Positions 28,896 through 60,275 of a stretch of 64,000 nt of DNA are shown in pieces (within the stretch, counting starts at the first letter, position 1; every line of letters begins with the position of its first letter). A model generated the notes under the pieces. It worked only from the letters and a program-made list of their open reading frames with translations, was not told where the DNA came from and ran no database searches. The translations under genes were made by a program, and so were the position numbers. Source of the DNA: an uncultured Rhodospirillaceae bacterium (GTDB lineage: Bacteria > Pseudomonadota > Alphaproteobacteria > MPNO01 > UBA2964). Where the stretch lies: positions 14,739 through 78,738 of the forward strand of contig CAZCKO010000001.1 in the NCBI GenBank assembly GCA_964499275.1, given 5' to 3'.

Positions 28896-28905
28896 GAGTA
28901 CTTAA

Positions 28906-32612: not shown

Positions 32613-32622
32613 GGGCCACCTA

Positions 32623-33525: not shown

Positions 33526-33570
33526 ATAAGTGGACATGATTTGGGCCCTTAAAACATATTTGGTAGTCAA

Positions 33571-34524
33571 TTACCCACCTTGTATTTTCTTATGGAGCAA
33601 TGTTTCTCCCATACCTTCGCCAAGGCTCCATTCCGCAAAATTTTCTGGGGTTGATTCCCATTCACGTGGTTCCCAATTATCATCGACTACATCAGAATCA
33701 AAATCATATTCTGCCGCTCCACCACATGGGTTTTTAAAGTACCAGAAATAACAGGAAGATATGGGATGACGACCTGGCCCAATCATGGTTTCCCAGCCTT
33801 TACGGGTCATATTATTTCCACCCCCGAAAAGCTCATGAATTGATCCAAGCTCAAACGCTAGATGATGGAAACCGCGTTGTCCTTTCCCTGGATCAAGCAA
33901 AAAAACGTTGTGATGGTTGTTAGCATCAGCACACCGAAAAAAATAACCGCGCCCTGGATAGGAATCCGTTAATTTAAAACCTAATCCATCAATATAAAAA
34001 TCTTTGTGCTTTTCCAGAGCGTCGGTCATAAAAACTATATGCGAGATCACTAAGGGTGACGCACAGCTATAAGCTGGCCCACGCTGATTAAGCCTATTGG
34101 CATTCCCCGGAACATTGATTTCGACTTCGGGCGCATTAGCTTGCGCACATTGTGTTGGTCTAAAAGCAATCCCAAAGCCCAATGGATCAACGCCGTGGAG
34201 TGTCCCGTCTTCGTCTATAATCACTCTTCCCTCAGCGGCCAGAATTGGTTCTAAAGCGTCGATGTCAGTGATTGAGTTTACGCCGAAGGTTACCTCCCGC
34301 ATTGTGGCAGTCTTATTTGGCCCAACGGGCGGTGGTAAATTAGGAGAATTTGGGGGAACTATCTCAATTTCCGCTCCATTTTGAGCAGAAAATACCGCCT
34401 GGTTATCTTTAACGTTTTTTAAAACGAGACCAAAATCTTTCCAGAACTTACATGCACCGTCCAGATCTTCAACGCCATATGTTACTCTCTCAATACCGGT
34501 ATGGTGCACCCTATACTCTCCCAA
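33571..34524 (-). CDS. Two-domain VOC-family extradiol ring-cleavage dioxygenase (catechol 2,3-dioxygenase-like)
   Basis: 317 aa. Duplicated glyoxalase-fold modules. HHLAFE metal-ligand motif in the C-terminal module. Confidence 0.7.
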   Translation of the reverse strand: MGEYRVHHTGIERVTYGVEDLDGACKFWKDFGLVLKNVKDNQAVFSAQNGAEIEIVPPNSPNLPPPVGPNKTATMREVTFGVNSITDIDALEPILAAEGRVIIDEDGTLHGVDPLGFGIAFRPTQCAQANAPEVEINVPGNANRLNQRGPAYSCASPLVISHIVFMTDALEKHKDFYIDGLGFKLTDSYPGRGYFFRCADANNHHNVFLLDPGKGQRGFHHLAFELGSIHELFGGGNNMTRKGWETMIGPGRHPISSCYFWYFKNPCGGAAEYDFDSDVVDDNWEPREWESTPENFAEWSLGEGMGETLLHKKIQGG

Positions 34525-34588
34525 TCAATTATAGTTTTTATATTTCTTATCTATTTTTTTGGAATGCCTTTAACAATTATTTTGGAAA

Positions 34589-35440
34589 TCACGGATTTGC
34601 AATAGTATCCACACCGGCCAGCTCGTCGCCCGGATTAACAATAAATGCCTCTCCACGAGAGAAAAAATCTCGTATAAGCGCGACAAACCTATCCGGTTGG
34701 TCAACCTCGATATTGTGTCCTGCATCGTATACATAAAGGAGCTTGGCTCTCGGGATCTCCCGCATCAGAAGCTGTCCACTTTCTGGTGGCATCATACCAT
34801 CCTTAGTTCCCTGCATGATAAGTGTCTGGCATTTTATGTTCTCAAGGTTTGAGACTAATGTTTCATCGAGCCCTATCGACTGATGATAATAGTTAGCCCA
34901 TTTACGACTTTCTGAAAGTTGCTTAGATGTTTTCTCACCTTCCGGAATACGCTCTGGATGGGCAAACATACGAGCTTGCATTTCCTCTGGGTTATCTGCC
35001 GGCCTATAGGGAATGTTTTTAGGCCGGAAGCCTGAGGGACATTGTGGAACCAAAAAACCTACCTTGTCTGCATGACGTACCGTAAACCACACTGATAGAA
35101 AACCCCCAAAAGATTGGCCAATAACATCGACTTTCTCGCCAATAACCTCATCCACAAAATCCGCTGCCAAATCAGCAAGGGCCGGCATGGTATCAATTCC
35201 ATCATGGGGCTTTGTGTTTTCAAAACCAGGAGCTACAAACATATAAATTCGGTAATTTTCAGCTAATTCATCTAATGCATAAGTAAACCTGATACCTCCA
35301 GCACTATGAAAATATAATATTGGCGGTCCATTGCCGGCGGCATAATAGGTCACGGGACCAGAAGAAAGATCGGCAATACATTTTTTAAAGACTCCGCCGG
35401 CCGGCCCTTCAATAATCATTTTGCTCCTTCCTTCTCCCAA
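34589..35440 (-). CDS. Alpha/beta hydrolase (meta-cleavage-product C–C hydrolase-like)
   Basis: GQSFGG nucleophile elbow. C-terminal DAGHNIEVDQPD His motif. Confidence 0.7.
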   Translation of the reverse strand: MGEGRSKMIIEGPAGGVFKKCIADLSSGPVTYYAAGNGPPILYFHSAGGIRFTYALDELAENYRIYMFVAPGFENTKPHDGIDTMPALADLAADFVDEVIGEKVDVIGQSFGGFLSVWFTVRHADKVGFLVPQCPSGFRPKNIPYRPADNPEEMQARMFAHPERIPEGEKTSKQLSESRKWANYYHQSIGLDETLVSNLENIKCQTLIMQGTKDGMMPPESGQLLMREIPRAKLLYVYDAGHNIEVDQPDRFVALIRDFFSRGEAFIVNPGDELAGVDTIANP

Positions 35441-35462
35441 GTGGTCCCGTTACCTCTTTCCT

Positions 35463-36509
35463 TTACTTCTTTTTCTTCTTTTTACCACGCAGGACTGAAC
35501 GGAATTTCTTACCCAATCGCGCTTCATTCTTCATCCGCCAATCATAGGGCACGTCGATTACTTTCTTACCCTGTACGTATTTATACATATCACCCGACTT
35601 AGTACTGATAAGAGAATAGCCCCTAACATCATGGATAGTCTTTTGGCCGGGCTGTGATACTACCCAATAGCCCCAAAGTTTAGCTATATTTGGAGATTTA
35701 GAGTCTTTTACAATATAGGCACCCCTAGCAGCTAAGATTACCATATCCATATCAGGATGTTTAACTGGTGCGCCTTTGCGGATTTCGGCCCAGGCATCTG
35801 TACCCAAACCTATGGCATATTCGCCCGCTATAATTCTAGAACGTACGTCAGGGTAACGCGGTAAGGTCTTAATCTTTTGTTTTTTGAGTAGCGCCTGCAA
35901 ATACTGCTCAGCCTTCTTTTCCCCAAATGCATAAGAATAATAGATCCAAGGCGACGGTGAGCGTGGCATCGCCAACTTACCTTTCCATTTAGGTTTTAGT
36001 AAATCACTGTAACTCTTAGGTGCATCAGCCGACTTTACTAATTTGGTATTAATGGTCACCATGGTAAGGTAACTGTCATGAGTTTTGATGCCATACTCCC
36101 CCTGCATCAAGCTTTTAGATAATCCAAATTCCTTGGACCAATTAAATTTCACTATTGCATTATTTTTAATCAAATAACGGGGGCTGGAAGTCCAAAATAG
36201 GTCAAGGCCTGTAGGTACATTATTCTTAAGGGCTCGAACAACCTCAACACGCTTACGGGTATGACGGCCTCCAACCTGATTCAGTTTAATTTTGGTACCA
36301 TAAAATGAGTTGAACCCGTCATTCATCATCTTAACTTGCCGAGGATTCATTGTAGTGCCAAAGACTGTAGCTTCACCTTCCTTCACGGCAGCTGGAACCA
36401 ATTTTTTTACCGAGTTGGGAAGTTCAGCCGCAACTGCAAAGGTTACTGTGCTGGTTAGAAGGGTTAACCCTCCTAAAACGGTAGATATTTTGATATTAAT
36501 ATTCTTCAT
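35463..36509 (-). CDS. ABC transporter substrate-binding protein, Fe3+/thiamine/polyamine (type II PBP) family, with a C-terminal poly-Lys tail
   Basis: Signal peptide. FbpA/PotD-like fold. Ends ...RGKKKKKK. Confidence 0.65.
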   Translation of the reverse strand: MKNINIKISTVLGGLTLLTSTVTFAVAAELPNSVKKLVPAAVKEGEATVFGTTMNPRQVKMMNDGFNSFYGTKIKLNQVGGRHTRKRVEVVRALKNNVPTGLDLFWTSSPRYLIKNNAIVKFNWSKEFGLSKSLMQGEYGIKTHDSYLTMVTINTKLVKSADAPKSYSDLLKPKWKGKLAMPRSPSPWIYYSYAFGEKKAEQYLQALLKKQKIKTLPRYPDVRSRIIAGEYAIGLGTDAWAEIRKGAPVKHPDMDMVILAARGAYIVKDSKSPNIAKLWGYWVVSQPGQKTIHDVRGYSLISTKSGDMYKYVQGKKVIDVPYDWRMKNEARLGKKFRSVLRGKKKKKK

Positions 36510-36570
36510 CTTTTTCCTCCTGTTTCATAAAATTTGCCATTTCCAGACCCGGTCTCTCGCCAGGCTTAAC

Positions 36571-38361
36571 TTATTCTCCTAAACCATGCCTTTGTTTTCG
36601 GGTGGAACCGATTAGGGTGATAGCTGAGGACCCAATATCAGAGAGCCATTGGCGAGTAGAGCGACGTCGCCTAACGTCCACGCCTCTTATCTCCTGCATT
36701 CCGGTAATTCGTCTTGCAAAAAGAGCAAGAAGAACCAAAACAAAAATCATATAAATTGCTACCGCAGCCGCTGCATTTTGTTCTCCATTTGTTTGTAGGT
36801 TAAAAATTAGCGTAGCAACGACCTCTGAATTTCCTGTGTTCATCACCAGCGGTAGCGTAAGATCACGTGCTGCCAACATTCCTACCATTAATGCCGAATA
36901 GAAGATAGCAGGTGCCATGAGGGGCAAAAAAATTCGGCGAAAAGTGTCCAGCTTTGAAACTCCAGATACATAGGCAGCTTCGTCGAGTTCAAACTGAATT
37001 TGTAACGACGTTGCATTCATAGTTCGTGTACAATAGGCCAACATTCGTGTGCCCATGGCTATGGCAACGAGCCAAATGGTTCCGAACAATGGGAGCCAAT
37101 GATAAATAGCGATCCCCATAAACTGAAAAGCGACACCAGTAACAATTGTGGGAACTGCCGGTGCAAGAAAAACAATACTGTCCGCCCAATGTGCGGCTTT
37201 GTGTCGGCTGCGTGTGACCAACCATGTAATACTGGTAGCCAAACTAGATGCGATAATGACCGAACCCGCCATTAAAATTAGAGTGTTTTTAAGTGGTTCG
37301 CCTATCCAGTCAAGGGCGTCATAAAAACTGTTAAGATTGACCGAACTTAGTGCCTGAATTGACGGTGGCTGGAAAAAGGGTACCAACGCGACCCAAATGA
37401 TGGTGATAACTGGAATAATGATACTGGCAAGAAGCCACACCCCTACACAGGCATAAGCCGCCCATTTCCAGCGCCCGAGTGGCTGAGGTGCTGAAGCGCG
37501 AACCTTCCCACCCACTACAGCATACTTTTTAGCCTGCTTTAAAAACCGCGCATAAAATGCGATAGCGCCACTACAAATTGCGAAGAGAACAACACCCGCA
37601 GCACCTGCAAATCCGAGGTTAGGCGGGCCATCGGATTCAGCGATTGCGTCATAAATCCAAAGTACCAAGACATCTCCGGGCATTCCGATAATTGCAACGA
37701 AATCAAACATCTCAACCCCGATTACAAAATAGAAAATCGAAACAGCGACCATACTGGGTCCGAGGAGAGGAAGTACAATACGTCCAACGGTATGCGACTT
37801 CGAAACACCACTTACCCATGCTGCTTCCTCAAGTGAAGCATCAAGATTACGAAAGGCTGGGAGCATCATGAAAACACCCCCGGGCACGAGAACAATACCC
37901 TGTAAAAAACATATCCAGGATAGCTGATAGACATCAAATAGTGCCCCACCGCTAAATTTGGTCATATCGAAAAGCTGATTAACCAAACCTGATGTTGGAT
38001 TGAACAACCAAACATAAGACATTGCTGTAATAAATCCAGGGATAGCGAGTTTGGCAGTAAGCAAAGAAAACAGTCCGGTCCTGTAACGAAAATCGGTGCG
38101 GGCCAACAACCAAGCGAATGGAAAGGAAAAGACAAACATCCAGAATACGGTACCCACGCCTAACACTATAGTTCGACCGGTCACCCCACCTAATGTATCC
38201 TGAGAAAATAATTCGAAGTAATTTGCCAGCGAATATCGATCAATATCGCCTTCTTCACTGAAACTGGTGACAACATTACCAAAAACAGAAATGCACACCA
38301 TGAACAACCCCACCCCAGAGAGTAGGAAGACCCATCCTATACCGTAGGATCTATTCAACAC
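36571..38361 (-). CDS. Fused two-domain ABC transporter permease (FbpB/ThiP-like, about 12 TM)
   Basis: Duplicated permease domains with EAA-like motifs. Start placed at the GTG at 38361 (GGGAGG RBS, 11-nt overlap with the upstream ATPase). The ORF track runs to 38466. Confidence 0.7.
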   Translation of the reverse strand: MLNRSYGIGWVFLLSGVGLFMVCISVFGNVVTSFSEEGDIDRYSLANYFELFSQDTLGGVTGRTIVLGVGTVFWMFVFSFPFAWLLARTDFRYRTGLFSLLTAKLAIPGFITAMSYVWLFNPTSGLVNQLFDMTKFSGGALFDVYQLSWICFLQGIVLVPGGVFMMLPAFRNLDASLEEAAWVSGVSKSHTVGRIVLPLLGPSMVAVSIFYFVIGVEMFDFVAIIGMPGDVLVLWIYDAIAESDGPPNLGFAGAAGVVLFAICSGAIAFYARFLKQAKKYAVVGGKVRASAPQPLGRWKWAAYACVGVWLLASIIIPVITIIWVALVPFFQPPSIQALSSVNLNSFYDALDWIGEPLKNTLILMAGSVIIASSLATSITWLVTRSRHKAAHWADSIVFLAPAVPTIVTGVAFQFMGIAIYHWLPLFGTIWLVAIAMGTRMLAYCTRTMNATSLQIQFELDEAAYVSGVSKLDTFRRIFLPLMAPAIFYSALMVGMLAARDLTLPLVMNTGNSEVVATLIFNLQTNGEQNAAAAVAIYMIFVLVLLALFARRITGMQEIRGVDVRRRRSTRQWLSDIGSSAITLIGSTRKQRHGLGE

Positions 38362-39520
38362 GGGATGCACCCTCCCCCGCAAGGCCACCTTCCAAATCCT
38401 CAGACAACAAATTTTGAGCGGGTGTGACAACAACAGTATGATCGGGTGGAAAACATAAACTAACATTATCCCCCTTTTTTACAAAAAACTTATGATGACA
38501 TTTGACACGAATTGATTCTTTACAGGCTTCAACGGTGTGAACAAATCCTTCACCCACATAATCAGAGGCGACAACAATGCCTTTTATGACGTTATTGGAT
38601 TCTTTGCTCTCTACACTATTGATCTGGATATCCTCAGGCCGAACACCGAGGATACATGAATCACCAACTACAAAACCAGCCCCACTCGTTGCATGAGCTT
38701 GTAAATCTCCAAATGGCGTACCAACCTCTACATGGCGACCGTTACTCCCTTTAAACTTTGCCGAAAATATATTCATGTCACCTAAAAACCTAGCGACAAA
38801 CTCATTTTCTGGATGATGGTAGATAGTTTGCGGATCGTCTAATTGAACTATTTTTCCTTGCTCCATTACCGCAATTCGATCTCCTGTCTCAAGTGCCTCC
38901 GCCTGATTATGAGTGACGTGGACTGTTGTAAGGCGCAATTCGTGCATCAGATCACGCATTTGTGCACGCAACCTAATTTGTAATTTGAGGTCCAGGTTGC
39001 TAAGTGGTTCGTCCATCAACAGGACCCTAGGCCGCAGCGCAAGAGCGCGGGCAAGCGCCACGCGCTGCTGTTGACCTCCACTCAACGTTATAACCGGTCG
39101 GCGGGCCATCTCACCCATACCAAGCATTTCGAGGACTTCACCTACGCGCACCCGAATTTCATCGTCTGCCATCTTGGTTCGACCGCGACGTAAGGGAAAA
39201 GCTATATTCTCATATACGTCCATGTGAGGCCAAATTGCATAGGACTGGAAAACCATAGCGATGGGTCTACGATCTGGCGGTATGAAAAGTCCTGCTGCGG
39301 AGTCGAAGACTGGTTCTCCATCAATATGAATTGACCCCAACGACGGTCGCTCCAACCCGGCGATTGAACGTAACATGGTTGTTTTCCCGCAACCGGAAGG
39401 CCCAAGTAGCACAAAGAATTCGCCTTCCTCTATTTCTAGATTTATACCACGCAAGGCATGCACAACGCTGTCCCGCAAATCAAACTTTGCTTCCAACTCT
39501 TGTGTTTTCAAAATAGCCAT
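38351..39520 (-). CDS. ABC transporter ATP-binding protein with a C-terminal TOBE domain (FbpC/PotA-like)
   Basis: GPSGCGKTT, LSGGQQQRVALARAL, LLMDEPLSNLD. C-terminal TOBE-like region. Confidence 0.85.
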   Translation of the reverse strand: MAILKTQELEAKFDLRDSVVHALRGINLEIEEGEFFVLLGPSGCGKTTMLRSIAGLERPSLGSIHIDGEPVFDSAAGLFIPPDRRPIAMVFQSYAIWPHMDVYENIAFPLRRGRTKMADDEIRVRVGEVLEMLGMGEMARRPVITLSGGQQQRVALARALALRPRVLLMDEPLSNLDLKLQIRLRAQMRDLMHELRLTTVHVTHNQAEALETGDRIAVMEQGKIVQLDDPQTIYHHPENEFVARFLGDMNIFSAKFKGSNGRHVEVGTPFGDLQAHATSGAGFVVGDSCILGVRPEDIQINSVESKESNNVIKGIVVASDYVGEGFVHTVEACKESIRVKCHHKFFVKKGDNVSLCFPPDHTVVVTPAQNLLSEDLEGGLAGEGASRVE

Positions 39521-39541
39521 ACGACGTATCTCTCTAATCTG

Positions 39542-40555
39542 CTATAGTGGTCGCGCGAAGACCCCTTGTTTTTGCAGCCGTTCAATTGTTGCTTTAGTAG
39601 TTTCTTTGGTTGCTGGCCCGGTATTGGTCTCCATGAAGGTCTGTTTAGCGAACTCTTGACCAAATAACTCTGATTTTATTTGCGCCGGGTAGTTCATAAA
39701 AACCTCGGTGCGTCGTTTTCGTAACCTCTCCACATCGATCGTGGAGACCAGAACTGATTCGCCTGCCCCATCGATTTCCGAATCCACATTACCGAGATAA
39801 TTGATAACTTTCGAACAACCACGCGATGCCTGTGCAGCAATATACTTACTCTTAATAGCCCCAGCGTTTGCCGAGGCAAGATAGACAAAATTTTCATAGG
39901 CCCGCGACCGACGAGCCTGATCCAAAGTTTGAACCATCGGCCCGTTCCATTCAGCGGTAGGATGCAAAAGAATTTCCGCGCCATGAAAGGTAAGGACGCG
40001 GGAGAGCTCAAAAAAATTCATGTCGTGTTCGACCATCAAGGCTAATCGCCCATATGGCGTATCAAGGACAGGGAATAATGAGCCCTCCCCATAGCGTTCA
40101 ATATAATCGCTATATACATCAGCAGGAGAGGCGTTAGGAATAAGTCCCTCAACATTATGTTCATGAATTTTTCGATATCGAAGTTCTACATCCCCAGAAG
40201 GGCCTATAATAAAACCGGTTGTGAACCAAATTTCTGGCCATTCAGGGTCCTGTTCAAATGCAGCAGTTGCGATATAAACCTGCTGTTCTTTGGCAAAATC
40301 TCCAATTCGTGACGTTTCAGGTCCCGGAATTTGTATGCAGATCTCCTTCCAATCAGCCTCTCGACGGGTGTGGTTAAACCCTTGCAGCCACGCTTCCGGA
40401 AATACTATGACTTTTGCTTCATCACGAAGGATGGCGGTTTCGGCAATATTTAAACCTCGTTCGATATTCCGGCCAATAACAGAATCTCGATCTACTGGAT
40501 CGTCGATAACCTCGATGGCTGCCTGAATGCACGCTAATTGATATTGTTTTGTCAT
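39542..40555 (-). CDS. Carbon–nitrogen hydrolase (AmiE/aliphatic-amidase-like) paralog lacking the catalytic cysteine (Cys→Glu)
   Basis: Conserved Glu (VFPEAW) and Lys (RYRKIH) of the E-K-C triad are present. The position aligned to ALINCYD of the neighbouring paralog reads ALMVEHD. Confidence 0.7.
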   Translation of the reverse strand: MTKQYQLACIQAAIEVIDDPVDRDSVIGRNIERGLNIAETAILRDEAKVIVFPEAWLQGFNHTRREADWKEICIQIPGPETSRIGDFAKEQQVYIATAAFEQDPEWPEIWFTTGFIIGPSGDVELRYRKIHEHNVEGLIPNASPADVYSDYIERYGEGSLFPVLDTPYGRLALMVEHDMNFFELSRVLTFHGAEILLHPTAEWNGPMVQTLDQARRSRAYENFVYLASANAGAIKSKYIAAQASRGCSKVINYLGNVDSEIDGAGESVLVSTIDVERLRKRRTEVFMNYPAQIKSELFGQEFAKQTFMETNTGPATKETTKATIERLQKQGVFARPL

Positions 40556-40557
40556 GA

Positions 40558-41715
40558 TTAAGTCAGCGCCGTATTCTGTTTTTCTGGCTCCCGATCGTTC
40601 CCTAATTCCTCTGGCGGAGCATAAACACCATCACGCAAATAACGCGCAATAACTGCTTCGGTATTCTGGCGAGCTTCAGATTTATGGGCTATGGGATTTT
40701 CTAACCAATGATTAATGCCTGTGGCCTGATGTTTTTTATATTCTTTCGCATAAATCTCGGTCCGACTTTGGGCCAATACATTACCACGTATCTCAGTCCG
40801 TTTCTCACGAAGTGCTTTAAGATCGACAGGACCAATCGCCAAGGCTTCCCCAGGGTTAGGAGATTGACCAACTATTTTACCGTTAAAATCAACAATTTCT
40901 GATCCACCATGCGAACGATGCAGCGGTGCTATTTCACCACTACGACGCTGCTGGAAATTAAGTCCGGGGGAGTCAGCAAATACATCGCCTGAAACTTGTG
41001 CAACATACCCCCCATGATTTGATGAGATCACATACATACAATTTTCAAAAGCACGTGTACGTCTACTCATCTCCCATGAATCACGATGTGGCCCATAGGG
41101 CTCGCCTGTACAATGCAACAGGATTTCTGCTCCATATTGCGCAAATGTCCGCGGCATTTCTGGGAAATTTATGTCATAGCAATTTATCAGTGCGAGCCTA
41201 CCGATCTCTGTATCTACTACCGGAAATACAGCATTCTCACCCCCCTCTTGTTTAACATAAAGATCGTAAAGTCCGGTCGGAGTAGAATAGGTCGCATGTC
41301 CCTGAACATCAGCACCGTTCACCTTACGATAACGAAGTTCCAAGTCGCCGGTGGGGCCGAATAAATAAGCAGAGTTAAACCACCGACCAGGATATGCCGG
41401 ATCATATTCCATCGTCCCACCCGCTACATAAGCCTTATTTTGCTTAGCAAAGTCAGCTAAGGGTTCTAACTCTGGTCCGGGCACCTGGATTGCAATTTCA
41501 CACCATTCCTCAACGGAACGTACATGCTCAACACCGGTTAGGGAAAATTCTGGTAAAACGTAAAGCTTAGCCTGTCCCCACCGGCAACTAACATAATCCA
41601 TCAGCGATAGGTAACGATTAATATTTTCGCGAACTATGGCTTCACGCCACTCTGGCTCCCGCACATGCCGGATGATAGTCTGGACCGCAACAGCTGTATA
41701 TTTTTCGACCATCAA
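40558..41715 (-). CDS. Carbon–nitrogen hydrolase (AmiE/aliphatic-amidase-like), catalytic triad intact
   Basis: LPEFSLTG (Glu), RYRKVN (Lys), LALINCYDINFPE (Cys). A roughly 60-aa C-terminal extension. Confidence 0.75.
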   Translation of the reverse strand: MMVEKYTAVAVQTIIRHVREPEWREAIVRENINRYLSLMDYVSCRWGQAKLYVLPEFSLTGVEHVRSVEEWCEIAIQVPGPELEPLADFAKQNKAYVAGGTMEYDPAYPGRWFNSAYLFGPTGDLELRYRKVNGADVQGHATYSTPTGLYDLYVKQEGGENAVFPVVDTEIGRLALINCYDINFPEMPRTFAQYGAEILLHCTGEPYGPHRDSWEMSRRTRAFENCMYVISSNHGGYVAQVSGDVFADSPGLNFQQRRSGEIAPLHRSHGGSEIVDFNGKIVGQSPNPGEALAIGPVDLKALREKRTEIRGNVLAQSRTEIYAKEYKKHQATGINHWLENPIAHKSEARQNTEAVIARYLRDGVYAPPEELGNDREPEKQNTALT

Positions 41716-41759
41716 TCAAGCCCCCCCTGCTTTCTGGTTAAATCGAATCTTTTTTGTTT

Positions 41760-42917: not shown

Positions 42918-43057
42918 AGCCTCCGCTTCAGGGTAGCTTTACTACCCGCCTATTAATTCATCATAACAAAATCAACCTGGCGGGACGCACCGCCAAATGC
43001 CCTTTAATTTTGTGCGATTATTTACTTAACGCAATGGCTAATTACGTTATACCTGTT

Positions 43058-43073
43058 ATAGTTATATACTTAT
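43058..43073 (+). promoter_or_regulatory. Quasi-palindromic ATAGTTATATACTTAT (T-N11-A-type) candidate LysR box in the divergent promoter region
   Basis: Imperfect dyad (12/16) within a TTATA-repeat tract 30–45 nt upstream of the LysR ATG. Confidence 0.3.
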
Positions 43074-43102
43074 ATGTTAAAGACAAAGATGATATAAAGA
43101 AA

Positions 43103-44020: not shown

Positions 44021-44026
44021 GCATGT

Positions 44027-44806: not shown

Positions 44807-44884
44807 CTATGAAGTTATAATCAACTATAAAAGAAAATTACTCAGACTAAATAGCGGTGCAAACTAACTATAAATTAACCTAGA

Positions 44885-46096: not shown

Positions 46097-47340
46097 AACA
46101 CTTCTTGCATGTTGGCCAACTGGACTAACGTGGTGCACAGCACCTTGGTACCTGCCAAAATGTCACTTTGATTGGTATATTCATTGATGTTGTGACTGAC
46201 CCCATCACATGACGGTACAAAGATCATACCCGAAGGACAAAAATAACTCATTTGACGCGCATCATGACCAGCACCTGAGAAAATACGTCGGCAGGGTAGA
46301 TCAAGATGTTTCGCCTCCTCTTCAATTGCCGAGATAACCTTCTCATTAAATTTAATGGTATCCGCCTCCGCAATACACCAAACATCTGATGAGCATTTCG
46401 ATACAGTTTGGGCCACTAAGTCTCTGACTTTTTTTTCACAATCCAATAGAACTTCGGAATCCGGGTGTCGTAAATCTATAGAAAAAACAACTTCGCTAGC
46501 AACAACTGAAGGCACATTTGGTTCTATTGTTAGCATACCGACTGTAAAACGAATGTCTTCAATAGTTGAAAACACTGTGTACATTTTTTCTATTGTTCTT
46601 GACGCCTCTTCAATCGCATCTTTTCTTAGATCGTAGGGTGTCGTCCCGGCATGGGCTTCATCTCCAATAATCTTCACCCGCATACGCCTGACCCCCTGTA
46701 TTCCGGTAACGGCACCAATGGGGATGCATTCTTTTTCTAGAATGGGACCTTGCTCAATATGTGCCTCTATAAAACAGTACACATCTCTTCCGAATGGAAC
46801 ATTTTTGATGCCCGGTAAATGATCTTGAAGTTTCAGGAGTTCATCCCCGACTGATACCCCTGTTTTATCCTTCACAGCCTTTATCTCTGATATTGGTTTG
46901 ACACCAACATATGCCTCGGATCCCATCATGCCAGGAGCAAACCGGGACCCCTCTTCGTTCATCCAGGCCACTATTTCGATACTTCTTCTGTGTTCTGTCC
47001 TTGAATTGATAATTGCCCGGGCCGCTTCTAGGCCTGCAAGGATACCAAAAGCACCATCAAACTTCCCACCGGTCGGCTGAGTATCAAGGTGCGAACCAGT
47101 CATAACTACCGGCAGATCGGGCTCATTCCCCTCAATGCGAAAAAAAAGGTTACCCACATCGTCGGCAGTTATTTTAAGCCCATATGCTTCTGCCCATGAT
47201 ATACAAAGATCACGTGCCGCAAATTCTTCCGAGGTAAGGGCTTGCCGATTAACCCCCCCGCCTTCAATGCCGCCAATTTCAGCTAGCTCCATCAAATTCG
47301 ACCAGAGCCTTTCAGATTCAATATATTCCGCAAGAGCCAT
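46093..47340 (-). CDS. M20-family Zn-hydrolase of the N-carbamoyl-L-amino-acid hydrolase / allantoate amidohydrolase / beta-ureidopropionase group
   Basis: 415 aa. GSHLDTQPTGGKFDGAFGILAGLEA signature of the AmaB/AllC family. Confidence 0.75.
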   Translation of the reverse strand: MALAEYIESERLWSNLMELAEIGGIEGGGVNRQALTSEEFAARDLCISWAEAYGLKITADDVGNLFFRIEGNEPDLPVVMTGSHLDTQPTGGKFDGAFGILAGLEAARAIINSRTEHRRSIEIVAWMNEEGSRFAPGMMGSEAYVGVKPISEIKAVKDKTGVSVGDELLKLQDHLPGIKNVPFGRDVYCFIEAHIEQGPILEKECIPIGAVTGIQGVRRMRVKIIGDEAHAGTTPYDLRKDAIEEASRTIEKMYTVFSTIEDIRFTVGMLTIEPNVPSVVASEVVFSIDLRHPDSEVLLDCEKKVRDLVAQTVSKCSSDVWCIAEADTIKFNEKVISAIEEEAKHLDLPCRRIFSGAGHDARQMSYFCPSGMIFVPSCDGVSHNINEYTNQSDILAGTKVLCTTLVQLANMQEVL

Positions 47341-47349
47341 GTGCCACTC

Positions 47350-48237
47350 TTAAATTTTTTTCAGTCCAGAAAGCAAAGCCGACTTTCCCAAGTAATCTTT
47401 CTTAGCTGACCAGTTACCCGACTCTGCCATAGCCAAAAACTCAGATAACATTAAATTGGTCAAAGTCGGCTCCTCTAAGTTGACGGTGTGCCCAGTGCGT
47501 GGCATCACACATAACCCTGACATTGGTAAGGTCCGTTTGAGATAAATTGACGGCTCAATGCACCACTCGTCTTCATCACCCACAATGATCAGGGCTGGGG
47601 CATTTACCTTAAGAATATCCTCTTCAAGGTCGTAAAGTGAAGGACGCTTTCGTTGTACACCTAGCATAGTCAGTGCAGCGCCTTGTTTCGAGTGACTGGC
47701 CAACCGGCCTTTGAATGCTTCCCATCCCTTGAAGTCTTTGGTTTTAAATTGTTGTCTAAATGCACCATTCGCATAAAGCTCGGCCATTTCCTCTGAACCA
47801 AGCTCAACGTATTTTTCAGCTAACATTTCTGCATCTTTGGCATATGCTTCCTGCTGGTCCTTGGGAGCGCCATAACCACATGAAATCAATGCTATAGATG
47901 AGGTTTTTTCTGGATACAAGATGGCAAAATGAAGGGCGGCAAAGCCTCCCATCGAACAGCCAATAATATGTGCCGATTTTAGTGAATACCCCTCAAGGAC
48001 TGAATTAATATCCTCAGCGGCAATTTTTTGGGAGTACAGTTCGGGATCCTCCGGTACATCTGATGGTGGATATCCGCGCGCATTGAACGTAATGCATTTG
48101 TATCGCCGCGAGAGAGCGGAAACTTGCATAGACCAGCTTTCAAGGTTATCAGCGAATTCATGAACAAATATGATCGCAGCGCCTTCTCCATACGCTTCCG
48201 TATAAAGCTTGGCACCATTAGCTTCAATTAAAGTCAT
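47350..48237 (-). CDS. Alpha/beta hydrolase
   Basis: GCSMGG nucleophile elbow. 295 aa. Confidence 0.65.
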   Translation of the reverse strand: MTLIEANGAKLYTEAYGEGAAIIFVHEFADNLESWSMQVSALSRRYKCITFNARGYPPSDVPEDPELYSQKIAAEDINSVLEGYSLKSAHIIGCSMGGFAALHFAILYPEKTSSIALISCGYGAPKDQQEAYAKDAEMLAEKYVELGSEEMAELYANGAFRQQFKTKDFKGWEAFKGRLASHSKQGAALTMLGVQRKRPSLYDLEEDILKVNAPALIIVGDEDEWCIEPSIYLKRTLPMSGLCVMPRTGHTVNLEEPTLTNLMLSEFLAMAESGNWSAKKDYLGKSALLSGLKKI

Positions 48238-48239
48238 AT

Positions 48240-49028
48240 TTAAATAGCCTTTACTTGTCCGCCATCTATATCGAAAGAAGCGCCGGTTATATAAGTCGCC
48301 CTATTAGAAGCTAAAAACACAACCAATGCTGCAAGCTCATCTGGCTCGCCATAACGCTTCAAAACTGTTTCCGCGGTCAATATAGCGGTTGCTTCTTTAA
48401 CAGAAATTTGATCCTCTTTCGCTTTTTCCTCTGCAAGATAGATCATTCGATCCGTAGCGAATGGGCCAGGGTTTATCACGTTACACAAAATACCATCTGG
48501 GGCACCTTCTTCTGAAAGTGCCTTACTAATATTTTGAAGAGCAGCGTTAGAAAATCCTGCAGTTATGGCATGAGCATGAGGCTGCCGGCCATGCGTTCCC
48601 GCCATAAAAAGGATACGCCCGCCATTACCTACCGACTGCATTACCCCAAATGCCTCACGTGCCAACCTGATTTGGGCGAATACTTTGGTCTCGGCAGCCT
48701 CGCGCCACATATCGTCTGTCATCTCTAGAAATGGTGCGGTAGCCGCACCGGCTGAATTTGCAATCAAGACGTCAAGTCCATGTTTCCTTGAAACCTCTTC
48801 AATCATGGAGATGGATTGTTCGGCTGATGTCACGTCGCATATGCAGCCTTCAACAACCCCGCAAGTTTCCGCATTCAAATTTTTAACTGCAAAATTGACC
48901 TTTTCCTCATTTCGCCCCGACAGCGTTACCGTTGCACCTTCCAACGCAAACATTCTCGCAATGGAATATCCCAAACCGCTACTAGCTGCACTGACGATGA
49001 CCGACTTTCCTTCAAGCCCCAATTCCAT
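48240..49028 (-). CDS. SDR-family NAD(P)-dependent oxidoreductase
   Basis: N-terminal SAASSGLG dinucleotide-binding motif. 262 aa. Confidence 0.75.
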   Translation of the reverse strand: MELGLEGKSVIVSAASSGLGYSIARMFALEGATVTLSGRNEEKVNFAVKNLNAETCGVVEGCICDVTSAEQSISMIEEVSRKHGLDVLIANSAGAATAPFLEMTDDMWREAAETKVFAQIRLAREAFGVMQSVGNGGRILFMAGTHGRQPHAHAITAGFSNAALQNISKALSEEGAPDGILCNVINPGPFATDRMIYLAEEKAKEDQISVKEATAILTAETVLKRYGEPDELAALVVFLASNRATYITGASFDIDGGQVKAI

Positions 49029-49061
49029 TATTAGCCTCGCTATAAGATATTTTAAATTATT

Positions 49062-50195
49062 TCACGAATGATTACCTTTGCTCGCACATTTTTCAAAGAC
49101 TTTCGGAAACTCTGAACAAAATAAACCAGCCCATTCCTCTGGTACTGTGGTCGAAATTTTAAGAAACAAATTTTTCAAAGTGTCACTATGATAGTCAGAG
49201 GTTCTAATAAAAAATCCCCGGTTGAGTAATTCGTCTGCAATAGAATTTGCAGAAACCCCGCTATCTTGGCAATCAACAGCTAAAAAATTCCCATTAGAAG
49301 GATATACAACGGGGCGTAGCCCCTCTAAGGGCTCTAGCATTCTATTAATCGATTCCTGATTTCGCCTTTGTACCAGGTTAACACCCTCCATCCACTCATC
49401 CTTTACCTCGAATGCCGCCACCGCAGCCAACTGCCCGAGAATATTTGAACCGAGGATATTGGGCTGATCTTCCATTAAATGCGTAAATATTTTCTTATCC
49501 GCTACTACAGCGCCAGTGCGCAGACCAGCGATACCAAGCCATTTACTGAAGCTATATGTCGTGATGGTCCTCTCAGGATAAAGATCTCGGACCAAAAAAT
49601 GATTAAAGGCGAAGTCGCGATAAGTGCAATCGTGTACAATTACAGCTCCGAATTTTCTTGCAGCATCTACGATTTCCGTCAACTCATCCAACCCATAGCA
49701 AGAACCAAGTGGATTAAGTGGGTCAATCAAATAAATAATAGCGTTATCACTAATGGAGAGTTGTTCTTCAAGTTCTCGGGCATCAATCTTATAATCCTTA
49801 CCCTCATCATAAATAGGTAACCGGCAGATATCAGCACCTTCATTCTGACTAAATTTCAGCGGCCATACCCAAGTGGGATCACTTGTAATCAGCGTTGTCG
49901 TCTTATTACTCATTCTCTTGCAAACGAGATACAAACCCTCGACTGCACCATCTGTTATAAGCACCTGTGTCTCCCCGGATGCCTCCGGCCCTATTAAATC
50001 GAGTAATATCTGTTCACGGAGTTTCTCTAAACCTTGCGGCGGCGCATAAAGGTTATAACTCTGGTCGTCGATACCTTTTATAAGCGCCTCTTTTACTAAC
50101 GGGTGGGCAGGCAAATGGTTGGTGTTTTGTCCCATCCAAAGCATGTCTTGGCTTCTATGCAGGGCATCAAAAGTTCGTGTGCTTTGAATTGTCAT
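49062..50195 (-). CDS. PLP-dependent aminotransferase, class I/II
   Basis: SFSKWLGIAGLRTG with the Schiff-base Lys. 377 aa. Confidence 0.75.
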   Translation of the reverse strand: MTIQSTRTFDALHRSQDMLWMGQNTNHLPAHPLVKEALIKGIDDQSYNLYAPPQGLEKLREQILLDLIGPEASGETQVLITDGAVEGLYLVCKRMSNKTTTLITSDPTWVWPLKFSQNEGADICRLPIYDEGKDYKIDARELEEQLSISDNAIIYLIDPLNPLGSCYGLDELTEIVDAARKFGAVIVHDCTYRDFAFNHFLVRDLYPERTITTYSFSKWLGIAGLRTGAVVADKKIFTHLMEDQPNILGSNILGQLAAVAAFEVKDEWMEGVNLVQRRNQESINRMLEPLEGLRPVVYPSNGNFLAVDCQDSGVSANSIADELLNRGFFIRTSDYHSDTLKNLFLKISTTVPEEWAGLFCSEFPKVFEKCASKGNHS

Positions 50196-50215
50196 ATCAG
50201 AAAAATGAGGCCTAC

Positions 50216-51016
50216 CTAAGACGCGTCTTTACCGGAAAATATTCGTAAGACGATAAATTCAACACAAACGAGACCAGTGAACAAAATCAATCCCACTATT
50301 AACAAAAAGGTTATTGCCGACAGTGCCAGTGCTGTCTCCAGACCAGAGGCCGCAAAGCTTATGAGATAACCTATTCCAGATTGGGCCGTTACAAACTCAC
50401 CAACGACTACTCCAATGATTGTGAGCGTCAGTCCAATTCTCAGTCCAGTAAAAATCATCGGAAGAGCAAAAGGCAATCTCACAGAGAAGAATGTTTGCCA
50501 TCTACCCGCTGTAAGTGATTCACAAAGCTTTAAATATGTAACACCAGTATTGAGCAACCCAGTTGATGATGCCACTACAATAGGGAAAAGAGCGAGACAC
50601 ATCCCGTAGGCTAGTCTCGCCTCTGTGCCAACTCCAAACCATAGAATGAATAGAGGGGCCAGTGCGATGGTGGGTATAAGGTTAAATAACACAAGATTAG
50701 GAAAAATCGCCCGACGCGCAATATAGGAGACTGTAATTAAACAGGATAAAGATAAACCCAAAATGGTAGAAAAAATAAAAGCCGCAAAACACTCATAAAG
50801 TGTGCCCAAAGCATGCCCCCACATAAATTTGCGCTGAGCTATGAAGAGGTCAACCACATCACCGGGTGGGGGTAATATGATTGTCGGTACAAATTTTTGA
50901 TCAACAAGGTGCTGCCACAAAAACACAATCACAGCAAAAAATGCGACCGGGAGAATGATCTGCCGGAAATTTGTGAAGATGTTCAGTCGCAACTTGTTTA
51001 AAATTAAATCGAGCAT
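50216..51016 (-). CDS. ABC transporter permease, NitT/TauT (SsuC-like) family
   Basis: 266 aa, six TM, binding-protein-dependent permease EAA region. Confidence 0.75.
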   Translation of the reverse strand: MLDLILNKLRLNIFTNFRQIILPVAFFAVIVFLWQHLVDQKFVPTIILPPPGDVVDLFIAQRKFMWGHALGTLYECFAAFIFSTILGLSLSCLITVSYIARRAIFPNLVLFNLIPTIALAPLFILWFGVGTEARLAYGMCLALFPIVVASSTGLLNTGVTYLKLCESLTAGRWQTFFSVRLPFALPMIFTGLRIGLTLTIIGVVVGEFVTAQSGIGYLISFAASGLETALALSAITFLLIVGLILFTGLVCVEFIVLRIFSGKDAS

Positions 51017-51050
51017 TCTTTCCTAAATTTCATTCCATAAGAGACACTGT

Positions 51051-51836
51051 TTATTGATTGCCAAACCAAACCTGTAAGCGGTAGCTCGCAAAAGCGATCA
51101 AGGAATAGAAAAAGAGACCCACGAAACACAGGAATAAAACCGTGGCTATCATTAAATCCGTTTGTAATTGGCCAAACGCTACCAAAATCAAAAATCCAAG
51201 TCCTTGTGAGGAAGTAATAAACTCACCCACAATTACTCCAATCATTGCCATGGTTATACTCATCTTCATTGCACTTATCAGATAGGGTAATGCAAAAGGA
51301 AATCTAACCAGAAACAAGGTTTGCAATTTTGACGCCGTTAAAGACTCACAAAGCTTTAAAAGACTGGGGTCGGTATTCTTTAGACCAGCGGTCATACTTA
51401 TAATTATCGGGAAAATACTTATAAAAACAGCAAAACCCAGGCGAGACTCAAATTCGATACCGAGCCAAAGAACAAACATGGGAGCCCACGCGATCTTGGG
51501 AACAATCTGAAAACCAACAATATTTGGATAGAGAGCATCCTTGGCCCACGGCGACCAAGTCATCAAAAGCGCTAAAAACAGACCAATAATACTTGCTAGG
51601 AGAAAACCGCCGAGCGCCACCGACGCCGTCGGTAAAATGTTCTTCGTTATAAGATCCCAATTATCAAAAATGGCAACTACAACCGCGCTTGGCCGTGGCA
51701 AAATTGATTTAGGATAATTTGTATACCAGGTAAAAAATTCCCAAATCCCAATCACTGACAAAAACAATAGAACCGGGAGGAAACTATCACGTACTCCGGT
51801 CAAAAACGAATTCTTAGGATTTGGCAAGGCACTCAT
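51051..51836 (-). CDS. ABC transporter permease, NitT/TauT (SsuC-like) family
   Basis: 261 aa, paralogous to the adjacent permease. Confidence 0.75.
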   Translation of the reverse strand: MSALPNPKNSFLTGVRDSFLPVLLFLSVIGIWEFFTWYTNYPKSILPRPSAVVVAIFDNWDLITKNILPTASVALGGFLLASIIGLFLALLMTWSPWAKDALYPNIVGFQIVPKIAWAPMFVLWLGIEFESRLGFAVFISIFPIIISMTAGLKNTDPSLLKLCESLTASKLQTLFLVRFPFALPYLISAMKMSITMAMIGVIVGEFITSSQGLGFLILVAFGQLQTDLMIATVLFLCFVGLFFYSLIAFASYRLQVWFGNQ

Positions 51837-51856
51837 CTACTAATTTTCTTTGATTG

Positions 51857-52669
51857 CTAATGCTGGGCGTCAATTTTCCCACGCAAATGGGCACAAATCT
51901 TGTTAAATTCTGGCGTTTCGACAAGAGAAAAATCTCTCGGGCGCTCAAATGGTACCACCAGATTTTCAATAATAGTTCCAGGGCGAGCACTCATCACCAA
52001 AACGCGATCAGACAGAAAAACTGCTTCTCTTATACTATGCGTTACAAATAGTCCGGTCTTTTTAAAGTCTTGCCATAGATCCATCAGAACCTGATTCATT
52101 TCGTCTCGAGTTATCGCGTCAAGCGCGCTGAATGGTTCGTCCATTAAAAGCAAAGAAGGATCATAGAGTAGGGCTCGACATATTGCGACCCGTTGTTTCA
52201 TTCCACCCGACAATTGTGCAGGTTTTTTGTCCAGAAATTGCTCGAGACCAACACGGCTCAAAAGATCTTCAGCGATTGGTAAATATTTTTTTCGGTCTCT
52301 ATTAAGAATCTTCACCGGAAAAAGAACATTTTCCAAGGATGTCTTCCAAGGCAGCAGGGTAGGGTCCTGGAACATCAATCCGATATCTTCTCGTGGCTTG
52401 ACCATCGGTTGACCACCGATTGTTACATTCCCTTTGGTGGGGTGTTCTAGGCCCGCAATCATCATCAATAGAGTGCTTTTTCCACACCCGCTAGGGCCCA
52501 GTAAAGAGACAAACTCCCCTTCCCCAACACCACAATCTATATGTTCAAGCGCTATCGTTTGATTGGGGCCAGGGTTAAATATTTTTTGAACGCCGTCCGC
52601 GTGCACATAACTATCCGACTGCAAAGCGGGTTCTCTTATAGCAAAAGACTCAGACATATTTAAACTCAA
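51857..52669 (-). CDS. ABC transporter ATP-binding protein, NitT/TauT family
   Basis: GPSGCGKST, LSGGMKQRVAICRAL, LLMDEPFSALD. Confidence 0.85.
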   Translation of the reverse strand: MSLNMSESFAIREPALQSDSYVHADGVQKIFNPGPNQTIALEHIDCGVGEGEFVSLLGPSGCGKSTLLMMIAGLEHPTKGNVTIGGQPMVKPREDIGLMFQDPTLLPWKTSLENVLFPVKILNRDRKKYLPIAEDLLSRVGLEQFLDKKPAQLSGGMKQRVAICRALLYDPSLLLMDEPFSALDAITRDEMNQVLMDLWQDFKKTGLFVTHSIREAVFLSDRVLVMSARPGTIIENLVVPFERPRDFSLVETPEFNKICAHLRGKIDAQH

Positions 52670-52723
52670 CGTAAAGGTTTGCAGAAAAATAGTTTAGTGA
52701 ACACGCGGACAACATCATAGGTT

Positions 52724-53842
52724 TTAACCGAGAGCCTTCGCCCCTGGTGCACCCAACTTCTTGATAAGCGCGAGTTCTTTGTCACTCACCTTGTATTTAT
52801 TAGTAACCATTTCATCCAAGTGCATGATTTTGCTCAAATCAGGAGCAGGGTCACCAGGCTTAGCAAGGTTTTTCACAACGAGGTCAACCATCTTTTGATA
52901 CTTAGCGGGATCAACACTACCCAGACCCGTCGTGGCCATTTCTTTTGTGGTATTGATGTAAGTGTAAAGGTCAATCTCGATGTCAAACTGCTTTCGCTTT
53001 GAAGCCGTAATCCCAGCTTCCGGCACTGCCTTGAAAAAGATCTCTTTAGCCTCGTCATGGTTGGTCATGTAGTACTTGATCCCCTCCATGATGGCTCCTG
53101 TCACATCCGCACACATTGCCTTTTCTTTTGCGTACATTTCAGGCTGGGTAATTATCATGTAGCCATAGAACGGCATATCGAAATCTTTATAAAGGAAAGT
53201 ACCAACGTCATACCCCTTGTTAACAACATCGGGGACAACTGATGAAGCAAAACAGGAAATAAAGTCGACTTTTTTCTGAAGCATAACACCGGTTCTGATT
53301 TTATTATCAACCTGAACGACATTAACTTTAGACCAATCAAACCCAGCATTTTGTCCAAAGATTGGCAAAAATGGATATTCTCCTGATTTAACAACAGAGC
53401 CACATTTTTTACCCTCAAGGTCCTTGGGTGTTTTGATGCCAGAAGATTTTAGAAAAACAATCCCCATCGCTGAGCTGTAGCTAGCGCAAGCTAGATAGGC
53501 TAACTTCATTCCTCTGACGGTCTGCAAAGACGCCGTCGGTGCAGATGAAATTCCGAAATTAAATTTGCCTTGCCCAATCGCTTGCGCAGATGCAGTGGAG
53601 CCGAAGCCGCGGCTTATTTTGACATCTAAACCAAGCTTCTTAAAAAAGCCCTTTCCAGCGGTGGTATAAATCCAGGCACTACCACCATTTGGAATCCACG
53701 ACTGCGTAAAGGTAATACTTCTCATTTTTTTTGCAAACGCCATTGGCGCGATACCACTGGCCAAAATGGATGCCATCCCCACACCGGTACCCCTAACAAA
53801 CTTCCGGCGACTGACACCTTTTAAAATTTTCTTCTTATCCAT
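52724..53842 (-). CDS. NMT1/THI5-like (NitT/TauT family) ABC substrate-binding protein with a twin-arginine signal
   Basis: N-terminal SRRKFVRG TAT motif followed by a hydrophobic stretch ending AFA. Periplasmic binding fold. Confidence 0.7.
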   Translation of the reverse strand: MDKKKILKGVSRRKFVRGTGVGMASILASGIAPMAFAKKMRSITFTQSWIPNGGSAWIYTTAGKGFFKKLGLDVKISRGFGSTASAQAIGQGKFNFGISSAPTASLQTVRGMKLAYLACASYSSAMGIVFLKSSGIKTPKDLEGKKCGSVVKSGEYPFLPIFGQNAGFDWSKVNVVQVDNKIRTGVMLQKKVDFISCFASSVVPDVVNKGYDVGTFLYKDFDMPFYGYMIITQPEMYAKEKAMCADVTGAIMEGIKYYMTNHDEAKEIFFKAVPEAGITASKRKQFDIEIDLYTYINTTKEMATTGLGSVDPAKYQKMVDLVVKNLAKPGDPAPDLSKIMHLDEMVTNKYKVSDKELALIKKLGAPGAKALG

Positions 53843-54216
53843 AAGTCTTATTCCTCCAGTTTATGATTAGTTGTCATATTTTAAATCTCTGAACTCAAAC
53901 AGTCATGACACCTTACATCATTATAGAATGCAAGACGCATGCCAAAGTGGCAATAGCCCCTATGTTTGACACCCGAGGGTCTAACCTAATACCCCCCCCT
54001 CGAATAAAAAAACGGGTTAATTAAACATTTCATTCGGAATCTAACAACCCACGAGATGCCCAAAACATTTTTCAAGGGTCTTCAAAAGATTGTATATATA
54101 TAAAAGTCTGAATTTTTAGCGCTTTGCTTAAAACTTAAATTTTGTAATGTTTTTTGCGATCATCTTCATGAGGAAGAACCTAGCGGTAGTATAACCCACC
54201 ATTGGGCATTAAGAGT

Positions 54217-54292
54217 TGGTGGAGGTAAGCGGAATTGAACCGCTGACCTTCTGATTGCGAACCAGACGCTCTCCCAACTGAGCTATACCCCC
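54217..54292 (-). tRNA. tRNA-Ala (anticodon CGC)
   Basis: 76-nt minus-strand cloverleaf GGGGGTATAGCTCAGTTGGGAGAGCGTCTGGTTCGCAATCAGAAGGTCAGCGGTTCAATTCCGCTTACCTCCACCA. G3:U70 Ala identity pair. Anticodon loop TTCGCAA. Encoded CCA. Confidence 0.85.
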
Positions 54293-57238: not shown

Positions 57239-57311
57239 GTTATTGCAAGGTTATTTGTTAAAGGTCGCTTAATGGTATTGTTACGTCAAGCTGGGTGACC
57301 CAGATTACATA

Positions 57312-59053: not shown

Positions 59054-59190
59054 GGTTTTGAGACTTTCTGTTAAAATTTTTTATAGGACATACACTAAAG
59101 AGTTTTCATCGAACTATCGACCCCACGGCTTTACCGGAATTGTAAGACATGGAATGCTATCACTAGGAAGAATCAGGAAGAGCTCTGAAC

Positions 59191-60159: not shown

Positions 60160-60275
60160 CTGATTCAGATTGCCTGCCCTCGACGATTGATAAAGCTAAA
60201 TGTTAGATTTAATGAGGAAATAATTATCATTTTACGGCCTTAGTATCCGTCAAAAGGTCAAAAAGGGAGGAAACA

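Follow-up and report, generated by a model that had tools for sequence, protein, structure and literature searches.

A catabolic gene block between the ccm operon and tRNA-Ala(CGC) of an uncultured marine alphaproteobacterium: a probable vertically inherited mosaic in a long-lived variable interval

The locus considered here is a block of 20.7 kb (positions 33571-54292) that lies between the ccm operon and a tRNA-Ala(CGC) gene in a 64,000-nt stretch of DNA, hereafter the window, from an uncultured marine alphaproteobacterium. We consider it likely that this block is a chromosomal, vertically inherited mosaic of at least three pieces, which occupies a long-lived variable interval between conserved anchors. 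The anchors would be acnA-ccmA-I on one side and tRNA-Ala-yggT-folD, together with the genes downstream of folD, on the other. One piece would be a single gene, b01 (the open reading frames, ORFs, of the block are numbered b01 to b19; Table 1), which encodes an extradiol dioxygenase and would belong to the ccm side. Another would be b11-b19 on the tRNA side, already in place in the common ancestor shared with a relative whose FolD is ~71% identical. The remaining piece would be b02-b10 (operon 1 without b01, the LysR gene and an Amdase-like gene), in which the two lineages would differ through an insertion or a deletion at some distance from the tRNA. On this view, site-specific integration at the tRNA plays no part in the present structure.

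The window matches marine metagenome contigs, and the metagenome-assembled genomes of its relatives are labelled 'Rhodospirillaceae bacterium' by their NCBI submitters. Six contigs with an identical FolD are 99.9% identical to the window and carry operon 2 beside the tRNA as far as they cover it. Across the overlapping parts of these contigs and of contigs at 93-96% identity, the gene content of the block is unchanged, the only difference being a 1.17 kb replacement in contig L095, which is described below. The sister lineage L092 is collinear with the window from ccmF to b05, with 94-97% nucleotide identity across the ccmI/b01 junction (91% for ccmI alone), and its proteins are 97-99% (b02-b05) and 99% (b01) identical to those of the window. 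Since nucleotide identity is uniform over this junction, we conclude that the left edge of the block marks neither a recombination nor an acquisition boundary. Such a boundary had been considered because the block proteins are 97-99% identical in L092, as against 88-92% for CcmG, CcmH and CcmI; it was rejected because nucleotide identity is uniformly ~95-96%, so that the contrast at the protein level reflects a difference in protein constraint.

The most informative comparison comes from the nearest informative relative, represented by L093 (GCA_002712335.1), L094 and L096 (a Tara contig), in which AcnA is 91%, CcmF 81%, CcmI 51-53% and FolD 71% identical to the window proteins. L093 and L094 have the order TauD-acnA-ccmA-I-b01-b11..b19, while L096 carries ccmH-ccmI-b01-b11..b19-tRNA-Ala(CGC)-yggT-folD in one 12.9 kb stretch, with a ccmI-to-tRNA interval of 10.6 kb. 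In all three, b01 directly follows ccmI (75-76% identical) and b11-b19 keep their order (74-96% identical); in L093, the block genes are 74-91% identical at the amino acid level, compared with 53-91% for the flanking core genes. What is missing is b02-b10, which neither tblastn nor blastn recovered from these contigs and in whose place there are 113 nt; L092 has b02-b05 in the part that was read. This synteny implies that roughly half of the block, with the tRNA-proximal operon in its entirety, is older than the separation of the lineages. The sole indel of the block relative to this relative is internal and not at the tRNA, and neither repeats nor mobile-element genes are present at the junctions that mark the ends of the b02-b10 segment. 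The preliminary description of this locus, made from the sequence alone, had envisaged an island that would be present or absent at the tRNA among related genomes. Instead, gene order is kept in the same-species and ~95% identical contigs (L095 apart), and only b02-b10 are missing in the nearest informative relative.

Among the more distant relatives, L106 and L108 (CcmF 78%) have a ccmI of 488 aa that is followed by Sel1, LigA, LigB, CBS, an orthologue of b01 and then unrelated genes. The b01 orthologue is 72% identical, has kept its orientation and lies ~2.3 kb after ccmI, and no other block gene is found in the 5-7.5 kb read downstream of ccmI. This proximity to ccm in L106 and L108 identifies b01 as a gene of the ccm side; it is linked to ccm in three lineages, with different neighbours in each. 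CcmI itself is 300 aa long in the window and in L092-L094, compared with 486-498 aa in L103-L106 and L110. The ccmI/b01 junction of the window (32623-33570 with ccmI) looks like the scar of a ~3.3 kb deletion that would have removed the C-terminal third of CcmI, because L106 and L108 have the long CcmI followed by Sel1, LigAB and CBS before b01 (L106 13042-17847).

On the other side, L087, L089 and L090 (FolD 71-72%) have a tRNA-Ala(CGC) identical at 74-75 of 76 nt and keep the genes to its right: yggT, folD, glyoxalase, Amidohydro_2, EamA and two more Amidohydro_2 genes. On its 3' side, however, the tRNA has other neighbours in each of them, represented by ECH, a lyase and TctCBA in L087, by IclR, ADH, a xanthine-dehydrogenase-type enzyme and TctCBA in L089, and by a Rieske protein, orthologues of b15, b14 and b12, and a TRAP transporter in L090. 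A still more divergent contig, L110, with a guanine-plus-cytosine (GC) content of 0.64 (CcmF 71%, FolD 64%), reads ccmE-I, choice_anch_I, TauE, CBS, TctC, tRNA-Ala(CGC), yggT, folD, and the four genes in its 4.4 kb ccmI-to-tRNA gap are unrelated to the window block. The ccmI-to-tRNA interval ranges from 4.4 kb (L110) through 10.6 kb (L096) to 20.7 kb (the window). L105 ends, and L089 begins, within a gene for a 625/628-aa thiamine pyrophosphate (TPP) enzyme in compatible orientation, which suggests for that lineage an interval of ~18 kb whose content is again different. The L087/L106 lineage has ccm and folD on separate scaffolds from one sample, and the interval there is probably at least ~30 kb. 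No empty site, with ccmI abutting tRNA-Ala, was found among the relatives compared.

The left anchor is collinear in L092, L093, L094, L104-L106 and L110, and tRNA-Ala(CGC) is kept beside yggT in every lineage examined, with 74-76 of 76 nt identical, the exception being L095, in which the native copy is cut. Both anchors are linked in three lineages whose GC content ranges from 42% to 64%, and the content between them differs. From these conserved anchors and the differing content between them we infer that the interval is a long-lived variable region.

In composition, the block is indistinguishable from its surroundings. GC content is flat, ~0.42-0.47 across the window, and amounts to 0.445 for the block compared with 0.447 outside it. 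Per-gene GC is 0.447 both in the block and outside it, GC at third codon positions is 0.403 and 0.406, respectively (Mann-Whitney p=0.48), and in codon usage the genes of the block lie no farther from the remaining window (0.135) than genes outside it do (0.154). The 5-kb tetranucleotide profiles of the block fall within the range of the rest of the window, and its parts do not differ in GC (b01 0.450, b02-b10 0.449, b11-b19 0.442, outside 0.447). All three parts therefore have host composition, and they diverge in step with the core. A search of all 19 block ORFs against NCBIfam and Pfam, which were used throughout to assign gene families, found no integrase, transposase or phage family. Copies of the tRNA 3' end, sought as a 25-mer and a 16-mer with up to three mismatches, were limited to the tRNA itself, and a repeat scan of 32500-55500 returned only short pairs at chance level, none of them tRNA-related. 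The lack of an integrase and of a direct repeat of the tRNA 3' end, both already reported in the preliminary description, was thus confirmed and extended to degenerate copies, and the compositional deviation that an island might show there was not observed. Taken with the kept gene order and the internal position of the only indel, these results are largely those that the preliminary description had named as evidence against an island. The plasmid and phage collections searched contain no near DNA match to the block (the best plasmid protein matches of b07 are below 31% identity), and viral contigs contain no exact match to the native tRNA-Ala 3' end. An Rfam scan found nothing in the block besides the tRNA, and a scan for promoter and terminator consensus sequences returned no more hits than shuffled sequence.

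Some observations weigh against a vertically inherited mosaic. The tRNA-proximal gene b19 (52724-53842) is 88-91% identical at the nucleotide level to its counterparts in L094 and L096, as against 72-79% for the genes around it; for the L093 copy, the figure is 75-84%. These values speak for a ~1.1 kb recombination tract, restricted to one gene, that was exchanged between lineages. In L095, which is 93-96% identical to the window at the nucleotide level, 1167 nt replace window positions 54154-54253. Only the 5' 39 nt of the native tRNA-Ala(CGC) are left there, with a mutated anticodon, its 3' half and 63 nt of flank having been replaced. The insert contains a complete foreign tRNA-Ala(CGC), identical to the native one at 58 of 76 positions, where the native gene is conserved at 74-76 of 76 in four other lineages. 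It also encodes a 244-aa alpha/beta hydrolase, and its GC content (0.419) equals that of its host. We found no integrase in the insert and no exact match to the foreign tRNA in viral contigs. This structure may be worth more than the block itself. In addition, the synteny break in L087, L089 and L090 falls exactly at the 3' side of the tRNA, as an integration hotspot would also predict. A scan for FolD with one genome per GTDB species gave best identities of 59-60%, the top matches being alphaproteobacterial and their loci of no use for comparing gene order. How the lineages are related was judged by the identities of a handful of proteins encoded on metagenome contigs rather than by a phylogeny of genomes.

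How do these data bear on other origins of the block? The preliminary description had raised an old, fixed island at the tRNA. In its full form, the whole 20.7 kb would be an old tyrosine-integrase island at the 3' end of tRNA-Ala(CGC) that has lost its integrase and attachment (att) repeats and whose composition has ameliorated. We regard this as very unlikely, even though the 3' end of the tRNA does face the block, the cargo on that side differs in L087, L089, L090 and L110, and L095 documents a real insertion or replacement at the tRNA. No integrase, repeat or compositional signal is present, block divergence tracks that of the flanks, and the block does not behave as one unit: b01 has a linkage to ccm of its own, and operon 2, which adjoins the tRNA and has kept its position best, is syntenic where b02-b10 are missing. 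Rescuing the island would require an event before order-level divergence, which would then be indistinguishable from ordinary gene-order evolution. The broader notion of an accessory interval beside the tRNA survives in part, as the content varies among relatives and the flanks are conserved, but the interval is not a single unit, b01 and operon 2 being separately linked. A narrower proposal, that only b02-b10 were acquired, is a serious possibility that we stop short of favouring. On this proposal, the ancestor of the window and L092 lineages would have received a LysR-regulated catabolic cassette of 10.4 kb horizontally, through illegitimate or homology-assisted recombination between b01 and b11. 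It is self-contained, with a regulator, a transporter and enzymes; it is absent from L093, L094 and L096, where 113 nt separate b01 from b11; and the neighbours of b01 differ in each of three lineages. However, its GC content of 0.449 is that of the host, its ends lack repeats and mobile-element genes, its divergence from L092 equals that of the ccm genes, and a deletion in the L093/L096 lineage fits the data equally well.

It is also conceivable that the interval is an exchange hotspot driven by homologous recombination, an integrase-independent 'additive flexible island' for which ccm and tRNA-Ala-yggT-folD serve as recombination anchors. We consider this unlikely. Conserved anchors around variable content in a clade spanning 42-64% GC count in its favour, as do the ~1.1 kb tract confined to the tRNA-proximal b19 and the replacement of half of the native tRNA by a foreign tRNA-Ala and a hydrolase in L095. 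However, apart from L095, block content does not vary within the species or at the 93-96% level in the overlapping parts of the contigs, and turnover becomes visible only at distances from genus to order, which ordinary rearrangement is enough to explain. Moreover, the cassettes are not near-identical across divergent backgrounds, unlike those of additive flexible genomic islands (PMC4898812). The more sweeping claim, that the ccmI-to-tRNA-Ala interval is an integrase-independent cassette-exchange hotspot maintained across an order-level marine Rhodospirillaceae-like clade of 42-64% GC, appears quite unlikely to us. If it were true, cargo would enter by recombination anchored in the flanks, sometimes bringing a replacement tRNA-Ala and leaving behind a dead 5' half of the native gene, as in L095.

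We therefore retain the vertically inherited mosaic as the preferred reading. The block sits in a slowly changing part of the chromosome, its biology is ordinary, and its content is 'accessory' only in a comparative sense. As a negative result, this analysis demonstrates that catabolic genes next to a tRNA and between housekeeping genes are insufficient grounds for calling a genomic island. It also documents a conserved pair of anchors (ccm and tRNA-Ala-yggT-folD) that enclose lineage-specific catabolic cargo in an uncultured marine alphaproteobacterial clade, and it draws attention to two predicted substrate-uptake operons.

Table 1. Coordinates and family assignments of the block, its flanks and related segments. 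Positions are those of the window, except in the last row, which refers to contig L095.
Feature	Position	Strand	Description
acnA	23617-26301	minus	upstream of ccm
ccm operon	26627-33525	plus	left anchor; ccmA, B, C, D, E, F, G (dsbE), H, I
ccmD candidate	28906-29121		71 aa
b01	33571-34524	minus	two-domain extradiol (VOC/glyoxalase-fold) dioxygenase; weak HpaD/catechol 2,3-dioxygenase matches; Pfam Glyoxalase
operon 1 (b02-b08)	34589-42917	minus	with b01 the run spans 33571-42917
b02		minus	alpha/beta hydrolase
b03		minus	substrate-binding protein
b04		minus	fused double permease
b05		minus	ABC ATPase
b06, b07		minus	nitrilase-superfamily C-N hydrolases
b08	start at 42917	minus	LLM-class flavin monooxygenase
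b08/LysR regulatory region	42918-43102		divergent region, ~185 nt
b09	43010-44020	plus	LysR-type transcriptional regulator, divergent from operon 1
b10	44027-44806	minus	Asp/Glu/hydantoin-racemase-fold protein (Amdase family); Pfam Amdase, Asp_Glu_race
b02-b10 segment	34525-44884		lineage-specific internal segment, ~10.4 kb; bounded by b01 and b11, far from the tRNA
operon 2 (b11-b19)	44885-53842	minus	with b10 the run spans 44027-53842
b11		minus	metal amidohydrolase
b12		minus	M20 carbamoylase-family amidase; TIGR01879 396.6 bits (cut-off 204)
b13		minus	alpha/beta hydrolase
b14		minus	SDR
b15		minus	PLP aminotransferase
b16, b17		minus	permeases
b18		minus	ABC ATPase
b19	52724-53842	minus	NMT1-type substrate-binding protein
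operon 2 leader/promoter region	53843-54216		between b19 and the tRNA 3' end
tRNA-Ala(CGC)	54217-54292	minus	ARAGORN, Rfam; 3' end at 54217, block on the 3' side
yggT	54456-54758	plus	Pfam CCB3_YggT
folD	54786-55673	plus	
L095 insert	1839-3005 (reverse complement 3939-5105)		replacement at the tRNA of L095

The block consists of 19 ORFs, 18 of which are on the minus strand in two co-directional runs, the remaining one being the plus-strand LysR gene (Table 1). Intergenic gaps do not exceed 374 nt, and ccmI and b01 are convergent, 45 nt apart. Every one of the 19 ORFs could be assigned to a transporter, regulator or enzyme family, in agreement with the preliminary account of transporters, a LysR regulator and catabolic enzymes in two long operons. 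Family matches likewise bear out ccmA-I upstream and yggT-folD beyond the tRNA, and ARAGORN and Rfam, which were used to assign tRNAs, place the tRNA-Ala on the minus strand with its 3' end towards the block. The models naming ccmA, B, C, E, F, G and I exceed their NCBIfam cut-offs. For ccmH there is a match below the cut-off to the related nrfF model only (89 vs 159 bits), and the ccmH of relatives has Pfam CcmH.

The description of the flanks as housekeeping genes holds on the left, for ccm, whereas on the right it applies to yggT-folD only, ~1.2 kb, with catabolic genes again beyond. The genes to the right of folD within the window encode glyoxalase, three Amidohydro_2, two EamA, FAH, M20 and hydantoinase proteins; up to ~61300 the order is glyoxalase, Amidohydro_2, EamA and two more Amidohydro_2 genes, and FAH comes next. 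These genes (55677-64000) look accessory or catabolic, yet their order is mostly conserved across the clade. They are mostly syntenic in L087, L089 and L090 and partly so in L110, with 62-91% amino acid identity; for one of the two EamA genes, L089 and L090 lack a close counterpart, and FAH recurs in two of those relatives. Amidohydro_2_a is still 90-91% identical in the lineage with 64% GC.

Operon 1 is transcribed in the order b08, b07 and b06, b05, b04, b03, b02 and b01. The divergent b09 matches many LysR-family models (E 1e-34 to 1e-14), none above an equivalog cut-off. These alignments start at residues 34-37 of the ORF that begins at 43010, and the true start is therefore likely to be the in-frame ATG at 43103, which gives the N-terminus MYSITLRQL. 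A GC-rich inverted repeat, CCTGGCGGGACGCACCGCCAAAT, lies at 42975-42998, in the regulatory region from which the LysR gene and operon 1 diverge, and could be an operator or a leader hairpin. Judged from its gene families, operon 1 is predicted to be a LysR-controlled module for the uptake and degradation of a compound that probably contains nitrogen and is possibly aromatic; the gene set suggests the breakdown of an amide- or nitrile-bearing compound.

Operon 2 is transcribed in the order b19, b18, b17/b16, b15, b14, b13, b12 and b11. In the window lineage only, it ends with b10, which is absent from L093, L094, L096 and L101; its matches to arylmalonate decarboxylase and EutA are below the cut-off. 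The operon 2 aminotransferase matches PRK06225 with 398 bits (cut-off 351). For b11, the match to PRK09237 (287.5 bits) is below the cut-off of 371, and hydantoinase models reach only ~30 bits. On the strength of these family matches, operon 2 is predicted to import a small organic nitrogen compound through a NitT/TauT-type ABC transporter and to process it by amidohydrolase, carbamoylase-family amidase, aminotransferase, SDR and hydrolase steps. The predicted set resembles a system for hydantoin or cyclic-amide utilization, without matching the hydantoinase models.

Two riboswitches lie elsewhere in the window. A TPP riboswitch at 20887-20978 on the minus strand scores 55.3 bits, just exceeding the gathering score of 54.3, and precedes a LivHMGF-like ABC transporter of the branched-chain-amino-acid type (16143-20817), made up of two BPD_transp_2 permeases, two ATPases and a Peripla_BP_6 binding protein. 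A transporter of this type is an unusual class for a thiamine-responsive leader. A cobalamin riboswitch at 1197-1405 on the plus strand (110.5 bits) lies upstream of genes for a TonB-dependent receptor (1597-3687) and a TonB-C protein (3701-4582), which is an ordinary BtuB-type arrangement.

A LysR gene divergent from the operon it controls is the classical layout of catabolic operons regulated by LysR-type transcriptional regulators. Operon 1 resembles these systems in that b09 diverges from it across a gap of ~185 nt and in that it combines an importer, an oxygenase and hydrolases. It differs from them in that b09 reaches no LysR equivalog cut-off, and control by an inducer is here a prediction. 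Operon 2 can be compared with the gene clusters for hydantoin and N-carbamoyl-amino acids, with which it shares an amidase above the TIGR01879 cut-off, a metal amidohydrolase and, in the window lineage, the racemase-fold protein b10. However, b11 matches PRK09237 below the cut-off and hydantoinase models only at ~30 bits, b10 is Amdase-like with a weak match, and operon 2 adds an aminotransferase, an SDR and an alpha/beta hydrolase for which the classical pathway has no need.

Tyrosine-integrase elements reportedly have preferred sublocations within the tRNA genes that they target. The block resembles tRNA-targeted islands, prophages, and integrative and conjugative elements in its position at the 3' side of a tRNA, in its catabolic and transport cargo and in the differences in content among relatives. 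What sets it apart from them is the lack of an integrase, of a duplicated tRNA segment and of any deviation in composition; moreover, no empty site was found, and within this mosaic it is the half beside the tRNA that has kept its position best. Compositional deviation is typical of recent islands and is not obligatory.

Additive flexible genomic islands of marine bacteria are tRNA-linked hotspots that vary from strain to strain within a species, often retain part of the tRNA as a repeat and carry near-identical cassettes in divergent genomes (PMC4898812, Lopez-Perez and Rodriguez-Valera 2016). Like them, the locus described here belongs to a marine bacterium and shows a break of synteny at a tRNA, and its cassettes differ between lineages at one site. 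In contrast to these islands, its content is stable in the overlapping parts of the 99.9% and 93-96% identical contigs (L095 apart), it has no repeat, and its cassettes diverge in step with the core genome, with the recombination tract in b19 as the exception.

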